A stretch of DNA of 64,000 nt from Gemmatimonadota bacterium. GTDB taxonomy: Bacteria; Gemmatimonadota; Gemmatimonadetes; Gemmatimonadales; Gemmatimonadaceae. The stretch is from assembly GCA_040389905.1 (NCBI GenBank), contig JAZJZK010000005.1:160001-224000 (forward strand), read 5' to 3'. Of the stretch, positions 38,470 to 46,641 are shown one piece after another (the stretch's first letter is position 1; each line of letters opens with the position of its first letter). The notes below the pieces were generated by a model, which searched no databases, was not told the DNA's origin, and saw nothing but the letters and a program-made list of their open reading frames with translations. The position numbers and the translations under genes are program-made.

Positions 38470-38552
38470 AAACTGCGATTGTGTATTCGCCGGGTCGGCG
38501 GCATCTTTTCCCGACACCGACCTCAGTCGCCCGTCCCAGAAACGAGCAAATC

Positions 38553-38993
38553 ATGCCCACACGCTATCGCGTGAGCAGTCCCAACATTGTCGCCGACGTC
38601 ATCGATGGCGAAGCGGTGATCATCCACCTTGAAAAGGGAACTTACTACAGCCTCCTGGCGCCCGGAGCAGAAGTGTGGGAAGCCGTCACGCGTGGAGCAA
38701 CGGACGTTGAAACCCAGCGTGAGATGAAGGCTCGTTACGCTGGTGAATCGAGCGACATCGAACATGCGGTATCCGAACTAATCGCCGAGATGGAGCGCGA
38801 AGGTCTGCTACTCGGTGAGTCGGTGACTGGCGAGGGCGCCGTCGTGGTACACACGGACGCGGTGAGCGTCGACCGGCCGCCATTTCAGCGTCCGGAACTC
38901 AAGCGGTACTCGGATATGGAGGCGATCCTGATGATGGATCCCATACACGAAGTGGATGAAGCGGGGTGGCCTGCTGCCAAGCGCCCCGAGTGA
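38553..38993 (+). CDS. PqqD/RiPP recognition element protein with C-terminal leader/precursor-like extension
   Basis: IDGEAVIIHLEKGTYYSL..GAEVW..V..LI.EM..EGLL RRE pattern, then linker and FQRPELKRYSDMEAILMMDPIHEVDEAGWP tail. Confidence 0.85.
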   Translation: MPTRYRVSSPNIVADVIDGEAVIIHLEKGTYYSLLAPGAEVWEAVTRGATDVETQREMKARYAGESSDIEHAVSELIAEMEREGLLLGESVTGEGAVVVHTDAVSVDRPPFQRPELKRYSDMEAILMMDPIHEVDEAGWPAAKRPE

Positions 38994-40038
38994 GTCGGGC
39001 GGCGCTACGCTCGCCTATTTCGATGCGGTCGACGATGCGTACCTCAGGGCGGCAGCGGTTCATGGTGGCACGTTCGATCACAACTATTCCGTTGCGGGAC
39101 GCACCGTTACCGTGCGCTTCGCAGGTGCCGCGCTTGTAGGGGAACTGACGCGCGCCATCAGTCATCTCACTGCTGATGCGGCAGCGGATCCAGACTTGAC
39201 CATCTGTGTGTGGGATAGCGAGTCGAGTGGTATCGCGCTGCCGGACACTCCGTGGCCCGTCCAGGCGTTTCAGGACCGTCGAGAAATGTGGGGGGTGAAC
39301 GGCGAGCGCGTGCGCGTCGTCTACGAGTTTGCGGAAGAGCCACGTCTGCACGTGTACGATCGCGAGCGAAAGACAGCGATTCTGTGGGCGCAGAGCGCCA
39401 AGGGCATTTGTTTTTACGAGCGCGCGGCTCCGTTCTTTCGTCCGTTCCATTGGGCGCTGGGAGAGCGGGGATTGCAGCTCGCACACGCGGCGGCGGTGGG
39501 CAGCAGTGCCGGCGGAGTGCTTCTCGGTGGGAAGGGTGGATCGGGGAAGTCCACCACCACACTCGCCTGTCTCGCGGCGGGGCTCGGCGCGGCGGGTGAC
39601 GACTACGTCATGTTGGAAGATGGCACGACGCCAATGGCGCACTCGCTCTACAACAAGGCCAAGCTCTTCGCCAACCACATGCGAGATGCGATGCCGGCAC
39701 TGCTAGCGTCGGTGGTGAATCGCGAGGAGATGGAGGCGGAGAAGGCGGTGGTCCAGATCGACGACGTGTATCCGGGACAATTGGTCGTGTCCATGCCAAT
39801 CCGTGCGGTGCTGGTTCCCCACATCACTGGAGAGCAAAAGTCGGAACTGGTGGAGTCGTCAAGTGCACTTGGCATTACGGCGATCGCACCGAGTACGGTG
39901 TTTCAGCTTCGCTGGGCCGGGCGAGAGGACTTCGAACGAATTGCGAGCGTCGTTCGTCGCGTGCCCAACTATCAGCTTCGCCTGGGTCGCAATCTCGAGC
40001 ACGCCGCCGAAACAATCGCTCGGCTGCTGGTGACGTAG
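38956..40038 (+). CDS. HPr kinase-related P-loop kinase
   Basis: LAHAAAV, GKGGSGKSTT Walker A, GDDYV (His-Lys-Asp-Asp set as in HprK-like and lasso peptide kinases). Confidence 0.82.
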   Translation: MKRGGLLPSAPSESGGATLAYFDAVDDAYLRAAAVHGGTFDHNYSVAGRTVTVRFAGAALVGELTRAISHLTADAAADPDLTICVWDSESSGIALPDTPWPVQAFQDRREMWGVNGERVRVVYEFAEEPRLHVYDRERKTAILWAQSAKGICFYERAAPFFRPFHWALGERGLQLAHAAAVGSSAGGVLLGGKGGSGKSTTTLACLAAGLGAAGDDYVMLEDGTTPMAHSLYNKAKLFANHMRDAMPALLASVVNREEMEAEKAVVQIDDVYPGQLVVSMPIRAVLVPHITGEQKSELVESSSALGITAIAPSTVFQLRWAGREDFERIASVVRRVPNYQLRLGRNLEHAAETIARLLVT

Positions 40039-40039
40039 C

Positions 40040-40789
40040 GTGCCGCGGCCCGCCGATGTGTCTGTCGTCATTCCCGTGCACAACGGTGTTCGCTTCATCC
40101 GTGAGGCGGTGCGTAGTGCGCAGGGCCAGTCGCGCGCGCCCGCGGAGATCATCGTTGTTGACGACGGTTCGACTGATGGGACGGCGGACGTGGTCAGGGC
40201 ACTTCCCGGTGTGACGTACGTGCGCCAGGAGAATGCGGGGCCGGCCTCGGCGCGCAATCACGGCGTGCGGCTCGCGACCCGTGCGTTCCTCGCGTTTCTC
40301 GATGCGGACGACCTATGGAGCGTCGACAAGACGGCCCTTCAACTCGCCCTGTTCGAGAAAGAGCCAGAAATGGATGTTGTCGTCGGTCACTCGCAACGGG
40401 TGATTCTCATTGCGTGGCGGGAGGGAGAACCGCAATACGAGACGGTTGGTAACCCCATTTTCTATCTTCATCTGGGGAGTTCGCTGTTTCGCCGGGCGTC
40501 GTTCGACCGGGTTGGTGCGTTCGACGAACGGATGCGGATGGGGGAGGACGTGGACTGGTTTCTTCGTGCCAAGGAGACGGGCATGCGGATGCGCTTTCAC
40601 GATGACGTGGTGCAGCCCTATCAGAAGCACGATGCGAACGTGACCCTCGATCGCGAGGAGATGAACCGCTGGCTCGTGCGTTCCTTCAAGCATTCGCTCG
40701 ACCGTCGCCGCGCAGCTTCAACGGATACCCCCGCTTCGCTTGGCGACTGGTCATCGGAAACCCTGCTGCTGAGGAAGCGCCGTGAGTGA
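40040..40789 (+). CDS. Glycosyltransferase family 2
   Basis: SVVIPVHN, VDDGSTD, ARNHG, FLDADD, GEDVDW. Confidence 0.93.
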   Translation: MPRPADVSVVIPVHNGVRFIREAVRSAQGQSRAPAEIIVVDDGSTDGTADVVRALPGVTYVRQENAGPASARNHGVRLATRAFLAFLDADDLWSVDKTALQLALFEKEPEMDVVVGHSQRVILIAWREGEPQYETVGNPIFYLHLGSSLFRRASFDRVGAFDERMRMGEDVDWFLRAKETGMRMRFHDDVVQPYQKHDANVTLDREEMNRWLVRSFKHSLDRRRAASTDTPASLGDWSSETLLLRKRRE

Positions 40790-41465
40790 CGGAGCGGTCA
40801 GTGTCATCATTCCCATGTACAACGCCGAGCGCTATGTCGCGGAAGCGGTAGAGAGCGTGCTCACGCAGACCCTTCGACCGAAGGAGGTCATCGTCGTCGA
40901 CGATGGCTCGACCGATCGCGGTCATGAGGTCATCGCTCAATTCCGCGACGTGCGCTATGTCCATCAGGACAATGCCGGAACGGGCCCGGCGCGGAATACC
41001 GGCGTTGCGTTAGCGCAGGGCGAGTTCCTCGCCTTTCTCGATGCCGACGACTTGTGGGAGGCGGACAAGCTGGCGTGGCAGGTTGCGACACTCCGGGCCG
41101 ACACATCGCTCGACATGGTGTTCGGTTTCGTCGAGCAATTCCCGTCGCCCGAACTGGCGGACGAAATCGAGCGAACGATCCTCTTTGCGAAAGAGCCCGC
41201 ACCCGCGTACTTCGCTGGAACCATGTTGATTCGGCGAAGCGCTTTTGATCGCGCCGGTCCCTTTCCCTCGCACCTCACGGTGGGCGAATTCATCGACTGG
41301 TACCTGCGGGCCATCGATGCCGGACTGACCAGCGTCATGCATCCTCGCGTCGTGCTGCGCCGCCGCATTCACAACACCAACATGGGGATCACGCAGCGTG
41401 GTGCGCAGAAGGATTATGTGCGCATCATCAAGGCAACGCTCGACCGTCGCCGCCGCAACGCATGA
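40782..41465 (+). CDS. Glycosyltransferase family 2
   Basis: SVIIPMYN, VDDGSTD, ARNTG, FLDADD, GEFIDW. Confidence 0.93.
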   Translation: MSDGAVSVIIPMYNAERYVAEAVESVLTQTLRPKEVIVVDDGSTDRGHEVIAQFRDVRYVHQDNAGTGPARNTGVALAQGEFLAFLDADDLWEADKLAWQVATLRADTSLDMVFGFVEQFPSPELADEIERTILFAKEPAPAYFAGTMLIRRSAFDRAGPFPSHLTVGEFIDWYLRAIDAGLTSVMHPRVVLRRRIHNTNMGITQRGAQKDYVRIIKATLDRRRRNA

Positions 41466-42355
41466 GTCTCGCGAGGCTCCTCCTGCGCGCCATCTTTCTG
41501 GATGGTCGCGAGTCGATGGATGCGTGGCACGCGTGGCAGGCGACAACGCAGCTGGATGACGTCGATCCGGAGTGCTACGCACTCCTTCCGATGCTCTACC
41601 GAAAGCTCGAGCGCGTAGATCCCGACCATCCCGATCTGGGGCGACTGAAGGGAGTGCGGAGGAGAATCTGGCTTGAGAATCAGTTAGTACTTCCTCAAGC
41701 CGCTGCGGCATTACGACGGCTTCACTCGGAGGGAATCGAATCTCTGCTGCTGGGCGAATTGGCCATGGGCACGGCGTACTATCCGGAGAACGGATTGCGC
41801 CAGATTCGCCAGACCGACATCGCTGTCCCACGAGGTGACGCGCGTCGGACGAAAGCGCTCCTTTCGCCAATGGCGTCGACCCTGCGGGTGCACACCAGCA
41901 TCATGTTTTTGGGATGTCCGCGAGAGGTTGAACATCTATGGTGGTCGGAGGCCGCTCACGTTCACATCATGGATGTGCCGTCGCGAGTTCTGGCGCCGGC
42001 CGACCAATTGGTTCACACGCTCGTATCGGCAGGGTCATTGTGGTCGAGCGATCCGGCAACATGGTGGATGGCCGATGCGCTTATCCTCCTCGCAGAGTCG
42101 AATGTCGATATCAACCGCGTCGTGGACATCGCGCGGCGATTGAAGGTGACGGCGTTCCTGCTCGACGCGTTGGAGAGGCTTCGTGCGGCGCTCGGGTGCC
42201 CTGTCGCCTTGAACCTCATCGATGCGCTGCGTACGGCACCGACGTCTCTCGCTGATCGTCTGGAACTCGGATACAGCATCAATTCGCGATGGCAGCGGCC
42301 CCTTCTCTCGTGGTTCATCGCTCCCCCTCGTCGCTTCTACCGCAGCTACACATGA
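41462..42355 (+). CDS. Nucleotidyltransferase-like protein (NTP_transf_5-like), catalytic motif degenerate
   Basis: LLPMLY, GIESLLLG..AYY....RQIRQTDIAV, LAPADQLVH, WWMAD layout of the family found in lasso-type clusters. Confidence 0.68.
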   Translation: MSLARLLLRAIFLDGRESMDAWHAWQATTQLDDVDPECYALLPMLYRKLERVDPDHPDLGRLKGVRRRIWLENQLVLPQAAAALRRLHSEGIESLLLGELAMGTAYYPENGLRQIRQTDIAVPRGDARRTKALLSPMASTLRVHTSIMFLGCPREVEHLWWSEAAHVHIMDVPSRVLAPADQLVHTLVSAGSLWSSDPATWWMADALILLAESNVDINRVVDIARRLKVTAFLLDALERLRAALGCPVALNLIDALRTAPTSLADRLELGYSINSRWQRPLLSWFIAPPRRFYRSYT

Positions 42356-43056
42356 CGCTCGTTTCCGTTATTCTGCCCGTCTACAACACCGAAGCGTTCA
42401 TCACTGAAGCGATCGACAGTGTGCTCACGCAGGGTCCGGAACCGCTCGAGTTGATCATCGTCGACGACGGCTCTACCGACGCGACGCCGGACATCGTTGC
42501 CGGATACGGCAGTACGGCGATCAAGTACGCACGACAGGAAAATCGGGGAGCGGCCGCGGCGATGAATGCCGCGGTTCGCCTCATTTCCGGTGAGTGGGTT
42601 GCCTTTCAAAATGCCGACGACGTTTGGCTCCCAGGCAGGCTGCCGTTACAGCGCGCGCTCCTGGATGCGCATCCGGAGGCAGACATCATCATCGGGCACA
42701 TGAAGCGGATGTGGCGCCCCGCCGGCGAGGTGGAGTGGAAGTGCACGGAGAAGGAATTTGCAATGAGCCTCCAGAGTTGCCTCGTTCGTCGCACGGTACT
42801 CGACCGGATCGGATCGTTTGACGAGACGCTTCGCTGCTGCTTCGACTGGGACTGGCTCTTCAGGGCACGCGAGACCGGTGTGTCGTTCCTCACCCATCCA
42901 GAAATCACGCACTACTATCGTCGGCACGAGACGAACATCAGCGGCGAGGCAACAGCCAACCCCGAGGTGGCGATCATCATCAAGCGCTCGCTGGAACGCC
43001 GGCGCGCGAAGGGCATGCAGGGATCGCTCGCGAGTCTCAATCCAAACACCGCGTAG
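42352..43056 (+). CDS. Glycosyltransferase family 2
   Basis: SVILPVYN, VDDGSTD, FQNADD, FDWDW, YRRH; ATGA coupling. Confidence 0.92.
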   Translation: MTLVSVILPVYNTEAFITEAIDSVLTQGPEPLELIIVDDGSTDATPDIVAGYGSTAIKYARQENRGAAAAMNAAVRLISGEWVAFQNADDVWLPGRLPLQRALLDAHPEADIIIGHMKRMWRPAGEVEWKCTEKEFAMSLQSCLVRRTVLDRIGSFDETLRCCFDWDWLFRARETGVSFLTHPEITHYYRRHETNISGEATANPEVAIIIKRSLERRRAKGMQGSLASLNPNTA

Positions 43057-43135: not shown

Positions 43136-44053
43136 ATGCCGCTCATCAGCGCGCGCAACCTCACAAAGTCGTATCCTGGCGTTCAGGCACTCGACGGCCT
43201 CACCGTCGATGTAGAGCCTGGCATCATTGGATTCGTCGGCGCCAACGGCGCCGGCAAGAGCACCTTCCTTCGCATTCTGCTCGGCTTGCTCGAACCAACG
43301 AGTGGGAGTGTCTCGGTGCTCGGCCACGACGTCCAGGCTGGCGCGATGGAGCTGCGCGGCCTCGTCGGCTACATGCCGGAAAACGATTGCCTTCCTCTCG
43401 ACCTGAGTGGCACGGACTTCGTCGCGCACATGGCGCAAATCTCCGGCCTTCCGTTTACGGCGGCGCGCGAGCGGGCGGCGGAAATGTTGCGGCACGTGGG
43501 ACTGCACGAGGAGCGATACCGCATGATCGGGAGCTACTCGACCGGCATGAAGCAGCGGATCAAGCTCGCCCAGGCGCTCGCCCACGATCCGCGTCTCTTG
43601 TTGCTGGATGAACCAACGAATGGCCTCGATCCCGAAGGGCGGGACGAAATGCTGGCGCTCGTCGAACGCACTGGTCGAGAGTTCGGCATCGCAGTCGTCG
43701 TCACGTCGCATCTCCTCGGCGAAATCGAACGGGTCTGCGACTCGTTGCTCGCGATCGACGGAGGCAAGCTTCAGTATGCGGGCCCGGTGGCGGCGTTCAC
43801 AGAGCGCAGTCGTCACCTGCTCGTCGAGGTAGACGATGACGTCCCTGAGTTTGCCGCGCAGTTGCGTGCGCGTGGGCTGACGGTCGAGGGAGCAGGTACC
43901 CAGTGGCGCGTTGGTCTCGCGGACGACTCCGTATACGACGTGGTGCGAGACGTGGCGGCGGAGCTCGCCGTTCCCTTGTCGCGACTCGAGGTCGCACGGC
44001 ACAAGCTCGAAGAGCTGTTCCGTCAACCAATTGCCGGAGCCGCCAATGGCTGA
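43136..44053 (+). CDS. ABC transporter ATP-binding protein (ABC-2 exporter type)
   Basis: GANGAGKST, YSTGMKQR, LLLDEPT, SH switch. Confidence 0.95.
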   Translation: MPLISARNLTKSYPGVQALDGLTVDVEPGIIGFVGANGAGKSTFLRILLGLLEPTSGSVSVLGHDVQAGAMELRGLVGYMPENDCLPLDLSGTDFVAHMAQISGLPFTAARERAAEMLRHVGLHEERYRMIGSYSTGMKQRIKLAQALAHDPRLLLLDEPTNGLDPEGRDEMLALVERTGREFGIAVVVTSHLLGEIERVCDSLLAIDGGKLQYAGPVAAFTERSRHLLVEVDDDVPEFAAQLRARGLTVEGAGTQWRVGLADDSVYDVVRDVAAELAVPLSRLEVARHKLEELFRQPIAGAANG

Positions 44054-44930
44054 CGCACGCACCGCGGGCGCGATCTATGATCTGGGATACCAGAGGTACG
44101 ACGGCGCACGCCTCGGACGGGGATATGCGTTTCGCACCCTTCTCGCCTTCTCGTTCCAAACTGCGTTCGGACTCGGCCGTGGCGAAAAGGCGAAGTTTCT
44201 TCCCATCATCTGCGGCGCGCTCGTCTACATGCCGGCGTTGATCCAGATCGGCGTCGCATCGCTTGCGGGATCGACCCAGTTTCTCAATTACGCGGACCAT
44301 CTGGAGTTCACCGCATTTCTCCTCGCGTTGTTTGCGGCAGGGCAGGCGCCGGAACTGATCGTAGCCGACCGGCAACAGGGCGTTCTTTCACTGTACCTTT
44401 CACGTCCACTGCGGCCGCTGGATTACGCATTCGCCAAGCTCATTGCGCTCTCCGGCGCGATGCTCGTGCTTACGCTTGGACCGCAGCTTGTACTCTTCCT
44501 GGGAAAGATCTTCATCAGCAACAAGCCATGGCCGGCATTCGTCGCCGAGTGGCCCAAGCTCTTTCCCATCCTCGGCGGGTCGTTGCTGGTATCCATCTTC
44601 TTCGCCGCGGTGGGACTCGCGCTGTCGTCCTTCGCAAATCGCAAAGGATACGCGACGGCGTCCGTAATCTCGTTTTTCCTGCTGTCAGGCGCGCTGTCGG
44701 AAATGGTGCAGAAAATTGGCTTCGGAGGCGTGGAGCGATATGCCGTCCTCGCGAGCCCGGCACTCCTGATTTCCGGCTTTGCCAAATGGCTGTTCGAAAT
44801 CGAAGCGCGGAGGCGCTCTGCCGTGGGCCGAGCGGCGCTGCCTGGACATCTCTATCTGGAAGTACTCACTGTCGTGACGATCATTGCCGTCGTGATCCTG
44901 ATTCGACGCTATCAGCGAGGTGAGGAATGA
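44046..44930 (+). CDS. ABC-2 type transporter permease
   Basis: IYDLGYQRY, LYLSRPL..DY..AK, multiple TM helices; between two ATPases. Confidence 0.88.
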   Translation: MADARTAGAIYDLGYQRYDGARLGRGYAFRTLLAFSFQTAFGLGRGEKAKFLPIICGALVYMPALIQIGVASLAGSTQFLNYADHLEFTAFLLALFAAGQAPELIVADRQQGVLSLYLSRPLRPLDYAFAKLIALSGAMLVLTLGPQLVLFLGKIFISNKPWPAFVAEWPKLFPILGGSLLVSIFFAAVGLALSSFANRKGYATASVISFFLLSGALSEMVQKIGFGGVERYAVLASPALLISGFAKWLFEIEARRRSAVGRAALPGHLYLEVLTVVTIIAVVILIRRYQRGEE

Positions 44931-45892
44931 CCGCGGCGCAACGAGCCGAGCCGCTCGCGCCAGCCTCTCCGGCGGCAGCGAGCCATAGCGTCGAGCTGCG
45001 GAACGTGTCGCGCTGGTACGGCAACGTCGTGGCGGTGAACGACGTGTCGTGTTCGCTCGGCGCCGGGATCACGGGTCTTCTCGGGCCGAATGGCGCTGGC
45101 AAGACGACGATCCTGCACATGATGGCGGGGCTCCTACGGCCGTCCGCGGGCTCGGTGACCGTCGATGGCGACGCCCCCGCTGGCCGACCCGACGTGTATC
45201 GAACCATCGCGCTGATCCCCGAGCGCGAGTCCGTGCAACCGTTTCTCACCGGCTACGAATTCGTGCTGATGAGCGCAAAGCTGCAGGGACTCCGTGATCC
45301 TGTCTCGGCGGCGAAGCGGTGCATCACGCTCGTGGATCTCGAGAGCGCTCAGGGGCGTAAGATTTCGACGTATTCCAAAGGCATGCGGCAACGCATCAAG
45401 ATCGCCGGTGCGCTCGTGCACGATCCAGGGGTCATTCTCCTCGACGAACCGTTCAACGGGATGGATCCACGGCAACGGATCCAGATGATCGACATGCTGC
45501 GCGGACTCGCGGCTGCGGGATGCGTGATCGTAATCAGCTCGCACATTCTGGAGGAGCTCAATGACCTCGCTTCGAACGTGCTGGTCATGGTTGCCGGCCG
45601 ACTCGCTGCCTCAGGCGATTTCCGCGAGATCCGGCGCCTGATGACGGATCGGCCGCACACCTTCACCACCAAGTCCTCGAACGACCGCGCGCTCGGTGCG
45701 TCGCTCCTGACCGATGCATCGGTGTTTGGCGTCGAACTGACGCCAGATCACATTGTCGTCCGAACGGCAGACCGCGGCGCAATGACGCGGAATCTGGCCG
45801 GCATTTCGCGCGCGGCAGGCATCCGGCTCCTCGAGATTCGTCCGACGGACGAGTCGCTCGAAAGCGTCTTCTCGTACCTGGTGGACCGATGA
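44927..45892 (+). CDS. ABC transporter ATP-binding protein
   Basis: GPNGAGKTT, YSKGMRQR, LLDEPF, SSH. Confidence 0.95.
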   Translation: MTAAQRAEPLAPASPAAASHSVELRNVSRWYGNVVAVNDVSCSLGAGITGLLGPNGAGKTTILHMMAGLLRPSAGSVTVDGDAPAGRPDVYRTIALIPERESVQPFLTGYEFVLMSAKLQGLRDPVSAAKRCITLVDLESAQGRKISTYSKGMRQRIKIAGALVHDPGVILLDEPFNGMDPRQRIQMIDMLRGLAAAGCVIVISSHILEELNDLASNVLVMVAGRLAASGDFREIRRLMTDRPHTFTTKSSNDRALGASLLTDASVFGVELTPDHIVVRTADRGAMTRNLAGISRAAGIRLLEIRPTDESLESVFSYLVDR

Positions 45893-46641
45893 ACGCCCCG
45901 CTCGAACGGACGGTGCTCTGGCTGACGTGGAGGCAACTCTTCGCTCGGAAGCGCATCTACCTCGCGATCGCCTTCTCGCTGCTTCCGGTGATCTTCACGC
46001 TGGTTTTCCGCTTCATGGCCGAGGATCGCGAAGGGGCGCGGATGGACTTCTTCAGCGGTTTGAACCGCAACCTCATCCTGGGAACGCTCATCCCGCTCGC
46101 GGCCGCCGTATTCGGAACCACCGCCTTTGGCGGCGAAGTGGATGACGGCACGATCGTCTATCTGCTCGTGAAGCCGATTGCGCGGTGGCGGCTCGTGTTG
46201 TCGAAGTACGTGGTCGCGGTCCTCTCGACGATCGCGGTCATGATTCCCGCGATGGTGCTCCCGTGGTGGATCATGGAAGGCACAGAAGTGACGTACGACA
46301 TGCTGGTGGGATTCATCGCCGGTGGTGCGCTCGGCGTGTCGATCTATTGTGCGATCTTCCTGACCCTTGGACTGGCATCGAAGCGATCGCTGATCCTCTC
46401 CCTGCTGTACGTCATCGGTTTCGAGGCGGTACTTTCGCGGAGTCTCGTTGGCGTCAAGTCGCTGAGCGTGCGCGAGTTCTCCGTTGCGGCGTCGCTCGCC
46501 GCAAGCAACGAATCGCTCACGCTCAAGGAATACGTCGTTCCCATGTCCACCGTGTGGACGATGGGGACGATCTTCCTCGTCGGAGCGATCAGCCTTTGCC
46601 TTTGGAAGCTGTCGCGGTACGAGGTGGCGGAACGGGTTTAG
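45889..46641 (+). CDS. ABC-2 type transporter permease
   Basis: EVDDGTIVYLLVKPIARW..SK motif, about six TM helices. Confidence 0.9.
   Translation: MNAPLERTVLWLTWRQLFARKRIYLAIAFSLLPVIFTLVFRFMAEDREGARMDFFSGLNRNLILGTLIPLAAAVFGTTAFGGEVDDGTIVYLLVKPIARWRLVLSKYVVAVLSTIAVMIPAMVLPWWIMEGTEVTYDMLVGFIAGGALGVSIYCAIFLTLGLASKRSLILSLLYVIGFEAVLSRSLVGVKSLSVREFSVAASLAASNESLTLKEYVVPMSTVWTMGTIFLVGAISLCLWKLSRYEVAERV

Follow-up and report, generated by a model that had tools for sequence, protein, structure and literature searches.

The closest known system to the locus described here is that of the linear polyphosphorylated peptide (LPP) clusters found in Bacillota (LppA/B/K/S/D/N; Popov et al. 2026, PMC13381572); for this and for the other systems cited below, statements refer to the accessible portions of the respective papers. 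LPP clusters and the family described here have in common an RRE together with a kinase of HprK-like type, an NTP transferase, a glycosyltransferase-rich context and the lack of a cyclase, and furthermore an aromatic-xx-P-x-L recognition motif with an invariant acceptor position 18 residues past the aromatic residue (PMC13381572). LPP clusters often encode an MsbA-like exporter as well (PMC13381572), and an ABC exporter is seen in a part of the loci compared here. The LPP phospho-acceptor is Ser3, located 18 residues after Tyr-16, and the kinase LppK rejects the substitutions S3T and S3Y (PMC13381572). In the Bsf lasso system, Ser3 of BsfA is located 19 residues after Tyr-17, and its phosphorylation is strongly boosted by the RRE (PMC10368454). 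Hexose addition onto the phosphate has been described as PsmN-dependent in the Psm system (PMC6993621); the accessible accounts of LppN (PMC13381572) and BsfN (PMC10368454) demonstrate no function for these two proteins.

RREs are assumed to bind a separate precursor and genome mining seeks the small gene that encodes it; a family in which the RRE is fused to its own leader would be missed or called precursor-less. No such fusion is described in the accessible portions of PMC13381572, PMC10368454, PMC6993621, PMC7470986, PMC12710340, bioRxiv 2023.03.08.531785 and PMC7533575, and a literature search with thin coverage of subscription papers returned no description of the cassette family, its motif strings retrieving unrelated papers only. 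Among PF05402 proteins, 21% exceed the discrete size without any other annotation (PMC12710340), and the tail-fused RRE family may be found among them.

The window, that is, the whole stretch of 64,000 nucleotides analysed here, contains a cassette with the LPP enzyme set of RRE, HprK-like kinase and NTP transferase (Table 1). We tentatively read its RRE protein, at a probability of about 0.45, as a self-presenting protein primer, which the kinase would phosphorylate, probably at D129, before the adjacent transferases add sugars to it.

Table 1. Positions in the window of the RRE protein's segments and of the cassette genes.
Feature	Positions	Strand	Basis or remark
RRE domain (PqqD-family, lasso B1-like), residues 1-90	38553..38822	+	PF05402 E 2.6e-9; AF2 pLDDT 88-98 per block; TbiB1 TM 0.89
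Ala72, helix 3 aromatic-pocket position	38766..38768	+	strongest tail-linked RRE column
Variable linker, residues 91-110	38823..38882	+	poorly conserved, low pLDDT
Leader-like segment F111-M128: FxxPxL, predicted strand 116-119, DMxxxLL helix	38883..38936	+	aromatic-Asp spacing, AF2
Asp129-Pro130, sole post-leader element common to both tail subtypes	38937..38942	+	Asp in LPP Ser3 register
Core of subtype I, I131-P140 (IHEVD..GWP), near-invariant there	38943..38972	+	AF2 block means low, 53-63
Variable C-terminal extension and stop codon	38973..38993	+	3-17 residues past GWP in 111 matches
HPrK-related two-domain PEPCK-fold kinase	38956..40038	+	His177, Walker A, Asp215-Asp216 intact
GT2 glycosyltransferase 1	40040..40789	+	FLDADD motif intact
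GT2 glycosyltransferase 2	40782..41465	+	FLDADD motif intact
NTP_transf_5 (PsmN/LppN-type)	41462..42355	+	PF14907 E 8.5e-18; DxD replaced by Q-x-D
GT2 glycosyltransferase 3	42352..43056	+	Pfam

The RRE protein and its leader-like tail

A single reading frame (38553-38993, plus strand) encodes a protein of 146 aa, which holds a lasso-type RRE, a linker and the tail F111-P140, and which ends in FQRPELKRYSDMEAILMMDPIHEVDEAGWPAAKRPE. The Pfam PqqD model (PF05402) matches residues 20-86 above its cut-off (E 2.6e-9), and the protein has the three-strand, three-helix fold of the RRE/PqqD family; it scores below the cut-offs of both lasso_PqqD NCBIfam models and does not match the HPr-rel-A PqqD model. 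The best solved-structure matches of the protein's model in Foldseek are the lasso RRE-leader complexes TbiB1 (TM 0.89 by target) and 6JX3. A terminator-like hairpin (38487-38501) separates the RRE gene from the MacB-type permeases upstream of it, as would be expected if the RRE gene were the first of a unit of its own; the region has fewer such sites than shuffled versions of it, and a scan for sigma-70 promoters found no site.

The initial annotation had described a leader-like tail following the RRE and a low-complexity linker, and this description is confirmed by the homologues. In all 103 of them the tail is conserved, with D121, D129, P130, H132, E133, V134, G138, W139 and P140 invariant. 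As this search was possibly biased by tail words, it was repeated with an RRE-only profile; among the best 120 of its 270 matches, the tail motif is present in 115, present as a variant in 2 and absent in 3, so that 117/120 are tailed. The three tail-less proteins comprise one of 86 aa on a 1-kb contig, one of 113 aa, and one of 154 aa with an unrelated, possibly frameshifted end. To judge from these sequence comparisons, conservation of the tail is far above chance. Synonymous codons vary at all invariant tail positions that allow change (72 distinct DNA copies, from loci picked by tail pattern), which points to selection on the protein; a DNA- or RNA-level cause of the conservation was ruled out on this basis. 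The spacing is fixed as well, with an aromatic residue exactly 18 positions before Asp129 in 115/115 tails, and the likeness of FxxPxL to the motif of lasso leaders, also proposed initially, is borne out by an aromatic-xx-P-x-L RRE-binding motif in 111/115 tails. In one branch of the family (many of P0069-P0091 and P0103; L125), FxxP has decayed, for example to W-x-A-x-x-L-R-F, and D-M..D-P-I-H-E-V..G-W-P is intact.

Near-invariance of this kind across phyla is unlike that of RiPP cores, those of LPP being highly variable (PMC13381572), and it would suit a docking scaffold, in which the tail stabilises the RRE and an invariant D-P..GWP surface recruits the kinase, the transferases or the exporter, the modified molecule being a sugar, a lipid or another protein rather than the tail. 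As LppB is insoluble (PMC13381572) and PbaB1 marginally folded without peptide, a fused leader could be of purely structural benefit.

The AlphaFold model of the RRE protein alone, computed with a 103-row alignment, reaches pLDDT values of 88-98 in the RRE blocks, 58-66 in the linker, 95 over residues 111-120 and 53-63 beyond; it contains a strand at 116-119 and a helix at 122-126, the latter within the low-confidence stretch 121-146. The output comes without a contact list, and the docking pose is read from confidence and secondary structure. A single-sequence model from the ESM Atlas is weaker (pTM 0.59). The initial annotation had suggested that the tail docks on its own RRE. The predicted strand, the structural matches to lasso RRE-leader complexes and the covariation described below support this as likely, and FxxPxL is very probably held in the cleft of its own RRE, with residues 116-119 extending the sheet.

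Residue 72 is Asp in 15/19 proteins with a Tyr tail versus 1/253 with a Phe tail, the strongest association among the RRE columns (303 distinct tailed proteins, of which 31 with other residues were left out); one further case of a Tyr tail with Asp72 was found outside this count. On the best tree the Phe/Tyr trait changes about 10 times, with only 2-3 independent pairs on supported branches. In random pairings, pairs were concordant or without difference and never opposite (p 0.25-0.5), the tree-corrected test being underpowered, and we regard the covariation as a suggestive sign of docking. Asp70 of LppB forms a hydrogen bond with the Tyr of the leader (PMC13381572), and residue 72 is equated with this Asp by spacing (D70/F74/M78/L83) rather than by alignment. 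The distance from L85 to the aromatic residue is 17-39 residues and never below 17 in the 303 proteins, so that the linker would be long enough for binding in cis; a domain-swapped dimer is a conceivable alternative to cis docking.

A tail that equals a leader in sequence and predicted pose could also act as an autoinhibitory mimic, as the initial annotation had proposed, occupying the RRE until a precursor from a separate gene takes its place. However, a screen of 97 loci yielded no free precursor; short ORFs that bear a leader motif are about as numerous there as in shuffled sequence (92 versus 90-106), and no free copy of the tail was seen apart from a single RRE/tail pair that an in-frame stop divides. 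A search for the free tail as a homologue of 30-79 aa, of low sensitivity as it needs three shared 5-mers, gave no candidate, and the source genome (85% complete) has a single PqqD. Nor would a mimic require invariance at 18-29 residues beyond the binding motif, and we consider this reading very unlikely. The split pair belongs to a locus with two RRE-kinase pairs (L015; 170-586 and 7034-7500), in the second of which the tail is left without its own start.

Tail subtypes and the candidate acceptor

A sister subtype of the tail, subtype II (L114, L116-L118, L124; two phyla), reads YxxPxLxx(Y/F)x(D/E)MA(D/E)xLALDPP(M/L/T)P and has no His and no GWP, Trp not being fixed. The segment DPIHEVDEAGWP, initially taken as the core, is thus not universal, as subtype II carries DPP(M/L/T)P instead. 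The kinases of subtype II form a separate branch (SH-aLRT 100 in a quick tree), and its RREs adjoin those of subtype I. Beyond the leader, the two subtypes share Asp-Pro only, which invariably follows the aromatic residue at a distance of 18 and 19 residues. A universally conserved hydroxyl residue is absent from the tail (103 homologues, 115 tails, 72 copies), which would agree with a scaffold function, and a C-terminal Ser occurs in 11/115 tails only.

Tyr119 forms the end of the predicted RRE-bound strand 116-119, and this position is Phe in 73/103 homologues. Position 120 is Ser or Thr in 89/103 homologues and in 111/115 tails; it is another residue in 14/103, and 10/72 distinct tails have N, I, E, G, R or A there. 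Loci with Phe119 or with a residue other than Ser/Thr at position 120, and with full-length kinases, include L014, L021, L024 and L040. The Tyr-Ser pair, which had been suggested as the site presented to the kinase and the glycosyltransferases, was rejected as acceptor on these grounds.

Since Asp-Pro is common to both subtypes and its Asp stands in the register of LPP Ser3, a match that concerns one position and two known systems differing by one residue, D129 is probably the leading acceptor candidate. The same register, occupied by an Asp that both subtypes share, speaks against the scaffold, as does the fact that the characterised sets of RRE, HPrK-like kinase and NTP_transf_5 (LPP, Bsf, Psm) phosphorylate the peptide itself. 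If Asp129 is the acceptor, the chemistry would be new for this kinase family. Several points count against it. In HPrK, the second Asp of the HPrK motif is the base for the Ser hydroxyl, and the kinase of the window retains this motif as Asp215-Asp216, which fits a hydroxyl acceptor better; furthermore, the rejection of Thr and Tyr at Ser3 by LppK indicates that such kinases can be narrow, and acyl phosphates are labile.

The cyclase and peptidase partners of lasso peptides were not found, and the initial expectation that the chemistry should differ from that of lasso kinases is supported. Neither a lasso cyclase (Asn_synthase-like) nor a B2 leader peptidase (Transglut_core3) was found by Pfam in the window's cassette or among 212 neighbour ORFs (mostly at least 110 aa, one per cluster, best five Pfam families each), and the same scan detected both in a lasso cluster used as positive control (L119). 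Signal peptidases or SpI-like enzymes (S24/S26) were likewise absent among the 212 ORFs, in a scan whose positive control covers the cyclase and B2 only. In the source genome, one borderline B2 match (26.4 bits versus a cut-off of 26) lies on another contig.

The protein could instead be a fused RiPP precursor with another acceptor, be it His132, Ser/Thr120, Trp139 or a sugar attached first, which a housekeeping protease or cleavage at Asp-Pro would convert into an exported glycopeptide. Within subtype I, neither His132 nor Trp139 varies, the frequency of Ser/Thr at position 120 agrees with such a role, Asp-Pro bonds are acid-labile and related loci often encode an exporter (see below). Subtype II, however, has no His and no fixed Trp, several of the tails with other residues at position 120 belong to loci with full-length kinases, and no protease family recurs across the loci, Rce1-like proteins being found in 2 and others once each. 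We therefore consider a fused precursor unlikely.

The cassette, its kinase and its distribution

The RRE gene is followed by genes for the kinase, two GT2 enzymes, NTP_transf_5 and a third GT2, and neighbouring genes abut or overlap. The kinase has a two-domain PEP carboxykinase-like fold and matches HPr kinases over the stretch of His177, Walker A and Asp215-Asp216; PEPCK being a small-molecule enzyme, this fold would be compatible with the scaffold. HPr-rel-A kinases have a PqqD protein and a nucleotidyltransferase as neighbours. These systems, HPr-rel-A and HprK_rel_B (TIGR04352, TIGR04355), have an HprK-related kinase as found here; the kinase of the window scores 28 and 28.7 bits with the two models, against a cut-off of 200.

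The kinase ATG (38956) lies within the tail-coding DNA, as initially noted. It derives from the Asp-Glu codons of the tail, is the sole canonical in-frame start before the first conserved kinase helix, and is identical in the nearest relative (L003). The tight coupling of the two genes deduced from it is only local. By reading of the junctions, a start inside the tail is needed in about 4 of 58 homologous cases, most kinases start within 50 bases of the stop codon, and in some loci the kinase is located 0.8-3 kb from the RRE gene; a family-wide overlap was ruled out. Kinase and GT2 are joined in a single ORF in a clear fusion (L066:11539-13350) and likely in two further cases (L112:9436-11301 and L110:6290-8281), which suggests that the two activities act sequentially on one substrate.

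The metal-binding DxD of NTP_transf_5 is intact in 40 of 48 aligned copies, and the window's copy, which lacks it, is probably catalytically degenerate. At each of the loci L016, L024, L007, L111, L113 and L118, which carry copies without DxD (8/48 aligned), an intact copy is also present. The source genome has its intact family member on another contig (C14; L130:9162-10340; 34% to that of L082), where it stands alone, with no match to another cassette gene for about 9 kb to each side. Such intact and DxD-less copies may form pairs of active enzyme and pseudo-enzyme. The cassette is followed by ABC-2-type transporter genes (43136-46641) and contains no MsbA-type exporter. As the exporters of related loci are mostly of the ABC_membrane type, the ABC-2 genes were not adopted as part of the cassette and probably lie outside it.

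Comparison was made with 82 related loci, namely the best 80 of 532 confirmed metagenome stretches and two genome loci from a search of genome contigs with a single protein (Ca. Binatus, a delta proteobacterium). Among the 37 loci with at least 3 kb downstream, 35 have the kinase (31 adjacent), 35 have GT2 (33 with two or more), 25 have NTP_transf_5, 14 have GT4 and 13 have an ABC exporter, the last being a point in favour of an exported product and thus of the fused precursor. Among the accessory genes are those for epimerases, methyltransferases, sulfotransferases and further sugar enzymes. These sugar-handling functions would also fit the scaffold, which, given the peptide phosphorylation in the characterised sets, we hold to be doubtful. 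GlcNAc 2-epimerase-family genes recur in the cassettes of both subtypes (L070:12290-13663, L069:2738-4027, L114:6207-7601, L116:4649-6034) and hint at the sugar used.

The cassette is, on the evidence of sequence searches, widespread in bacteria and forms a large family. At least 532 stretches were confirmed in roughly two thirds of a metagenome scan, and the present sampling falls short of the full family and of its rarer tail subtypes. Cultured cyanobacterial carriers include Calothrix, Scytonema, Nostoc, Fortiea and Crinalium epipsammum PCC 9333, the last on plasmid NC_019735.1 with the RRE protein and the kinase as CRI9333_RS23855 and RS23865. In the phylum of the window, a kinase-anchored search matched 12 of 401 genomes, with the source genome among them. 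Ten other published genomes were chosen by their kinase alone; in 8 of them the kinase has a tailed RRE as its neighbour, 1 has a tail end only and 1 a lasso cluster. The tail end, of subtype II, appears to precede the kinase at L115:4869-5300 (G214), where an ORF for a TonB-dependent receptor overlaps on the opposite strand and no RRE was found in 16 kb. The lasso cluster (L119, G237), which has the weakest kinase match, is a Bsf/paeninodin-like set in the window's phylum, in which a discrete RRE is accompanied by B2 and cyclase, a kinase, an ABC-2 exporter and NTP_transf_5.

Proposed mechanism and relation to known systems

The protein-primer reading starts from an observed arrangement, in which RRE, linker and conserved tail form one reading frame beside a kinase, GT2 enzymes and NTP_transf_5. 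FxxPxL is predicted to occupy the RRE cleft, where residues 116-119 would extend the sheet. By analogy with BsfB1/BsfK and LppB/LppK, the RRE would then hand the kinase the residue 18-19 positions past the aromatic, Asp129, yielding an acyl phosphate. As in PsmK/PsmN, an NTP_transf_5 enzyme would place a hexose on the phosphate, and GT2 and GT4 enzymes would extend it. Because the loci share no protease and the tail is invariant, the protein presumably stays whole as primer or carrier of a phospho-glycan, without a variable peptide product. Against this best reading stand the lack of DxD in the window's NTP_transf_5, the location of the intact copy on another contig and the lack of an MsbA-type exporter here.

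A more far-reaching version, and a rather improbable one, would assemble RiPP parts into a protein-primed pathway for glycans. The RRE with its fused leader would serve as a reusable carrier, an HPrK-fold kinase would convert its invariant Asp to an acyl phosphate, an NTP_transf_5 enzyme would load sugar, GT2 enzymes would extend it, and cleavage at the labile link would unload it. If this version is true, it would introduce a linkage of the aspartyl-phosphoglycan type and, as carrier, a protein of RiPP origin without peptide product. The RRE protein and the kinase together offer a two-protein test of the roles of HPrK-like peptide kinases and NTP_transf_5.

Compared with the pseudomycoidin/paeninodin-type lasso clusters (PsmK/PsmN), the family has in common an HprK-family kinase and NTP_transf_5 (PMC6993621). 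The acceptor of PsmK is the C-terminal Ser of the lasso peptide, whereas here no such Ser is conserved and no cyclase is found; PsmN needs its DxD, which the NTP_transf_5 of the window lacks (PMC6993621). The Bsf lasso cluster of Bradymonas sediminis resembles the present family in its RRE-assisted HPrK-like kinase, which acts just past the leader, in a nucleotidyltransferase alongside and in a penultimate residue other than Thr; Bsf, however, encodes its RRE as a discrete protein and its precursor as a free one, along with a B2 peptidase and a cyclase, none of which were seen here (PMC10368454). LPP has a discrete RRE and a separate precursor, YxxPxVLxHQxIxFETxxS, whereas here RRE and leader are one chain, and the SpI-like peptidase of LPP has no counterpart among the 212 neighbour ORFs (PMC13381572). 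The LPP motif starts with Tyr, whereas the motif here is mostly FxxP with the Tyr-binding Asp lost; at the acceptor position, LPP has Ser and the present family Asp, and the core is near-invariant here versus highly variable in LPP (PMC13381572). Finally, small GT2 enzymes are fixed members here, unlike in LPP, and the family is carried by cyanobacteria and other phyla, whereas LPP belongs to Bacillota (PMC13381572).
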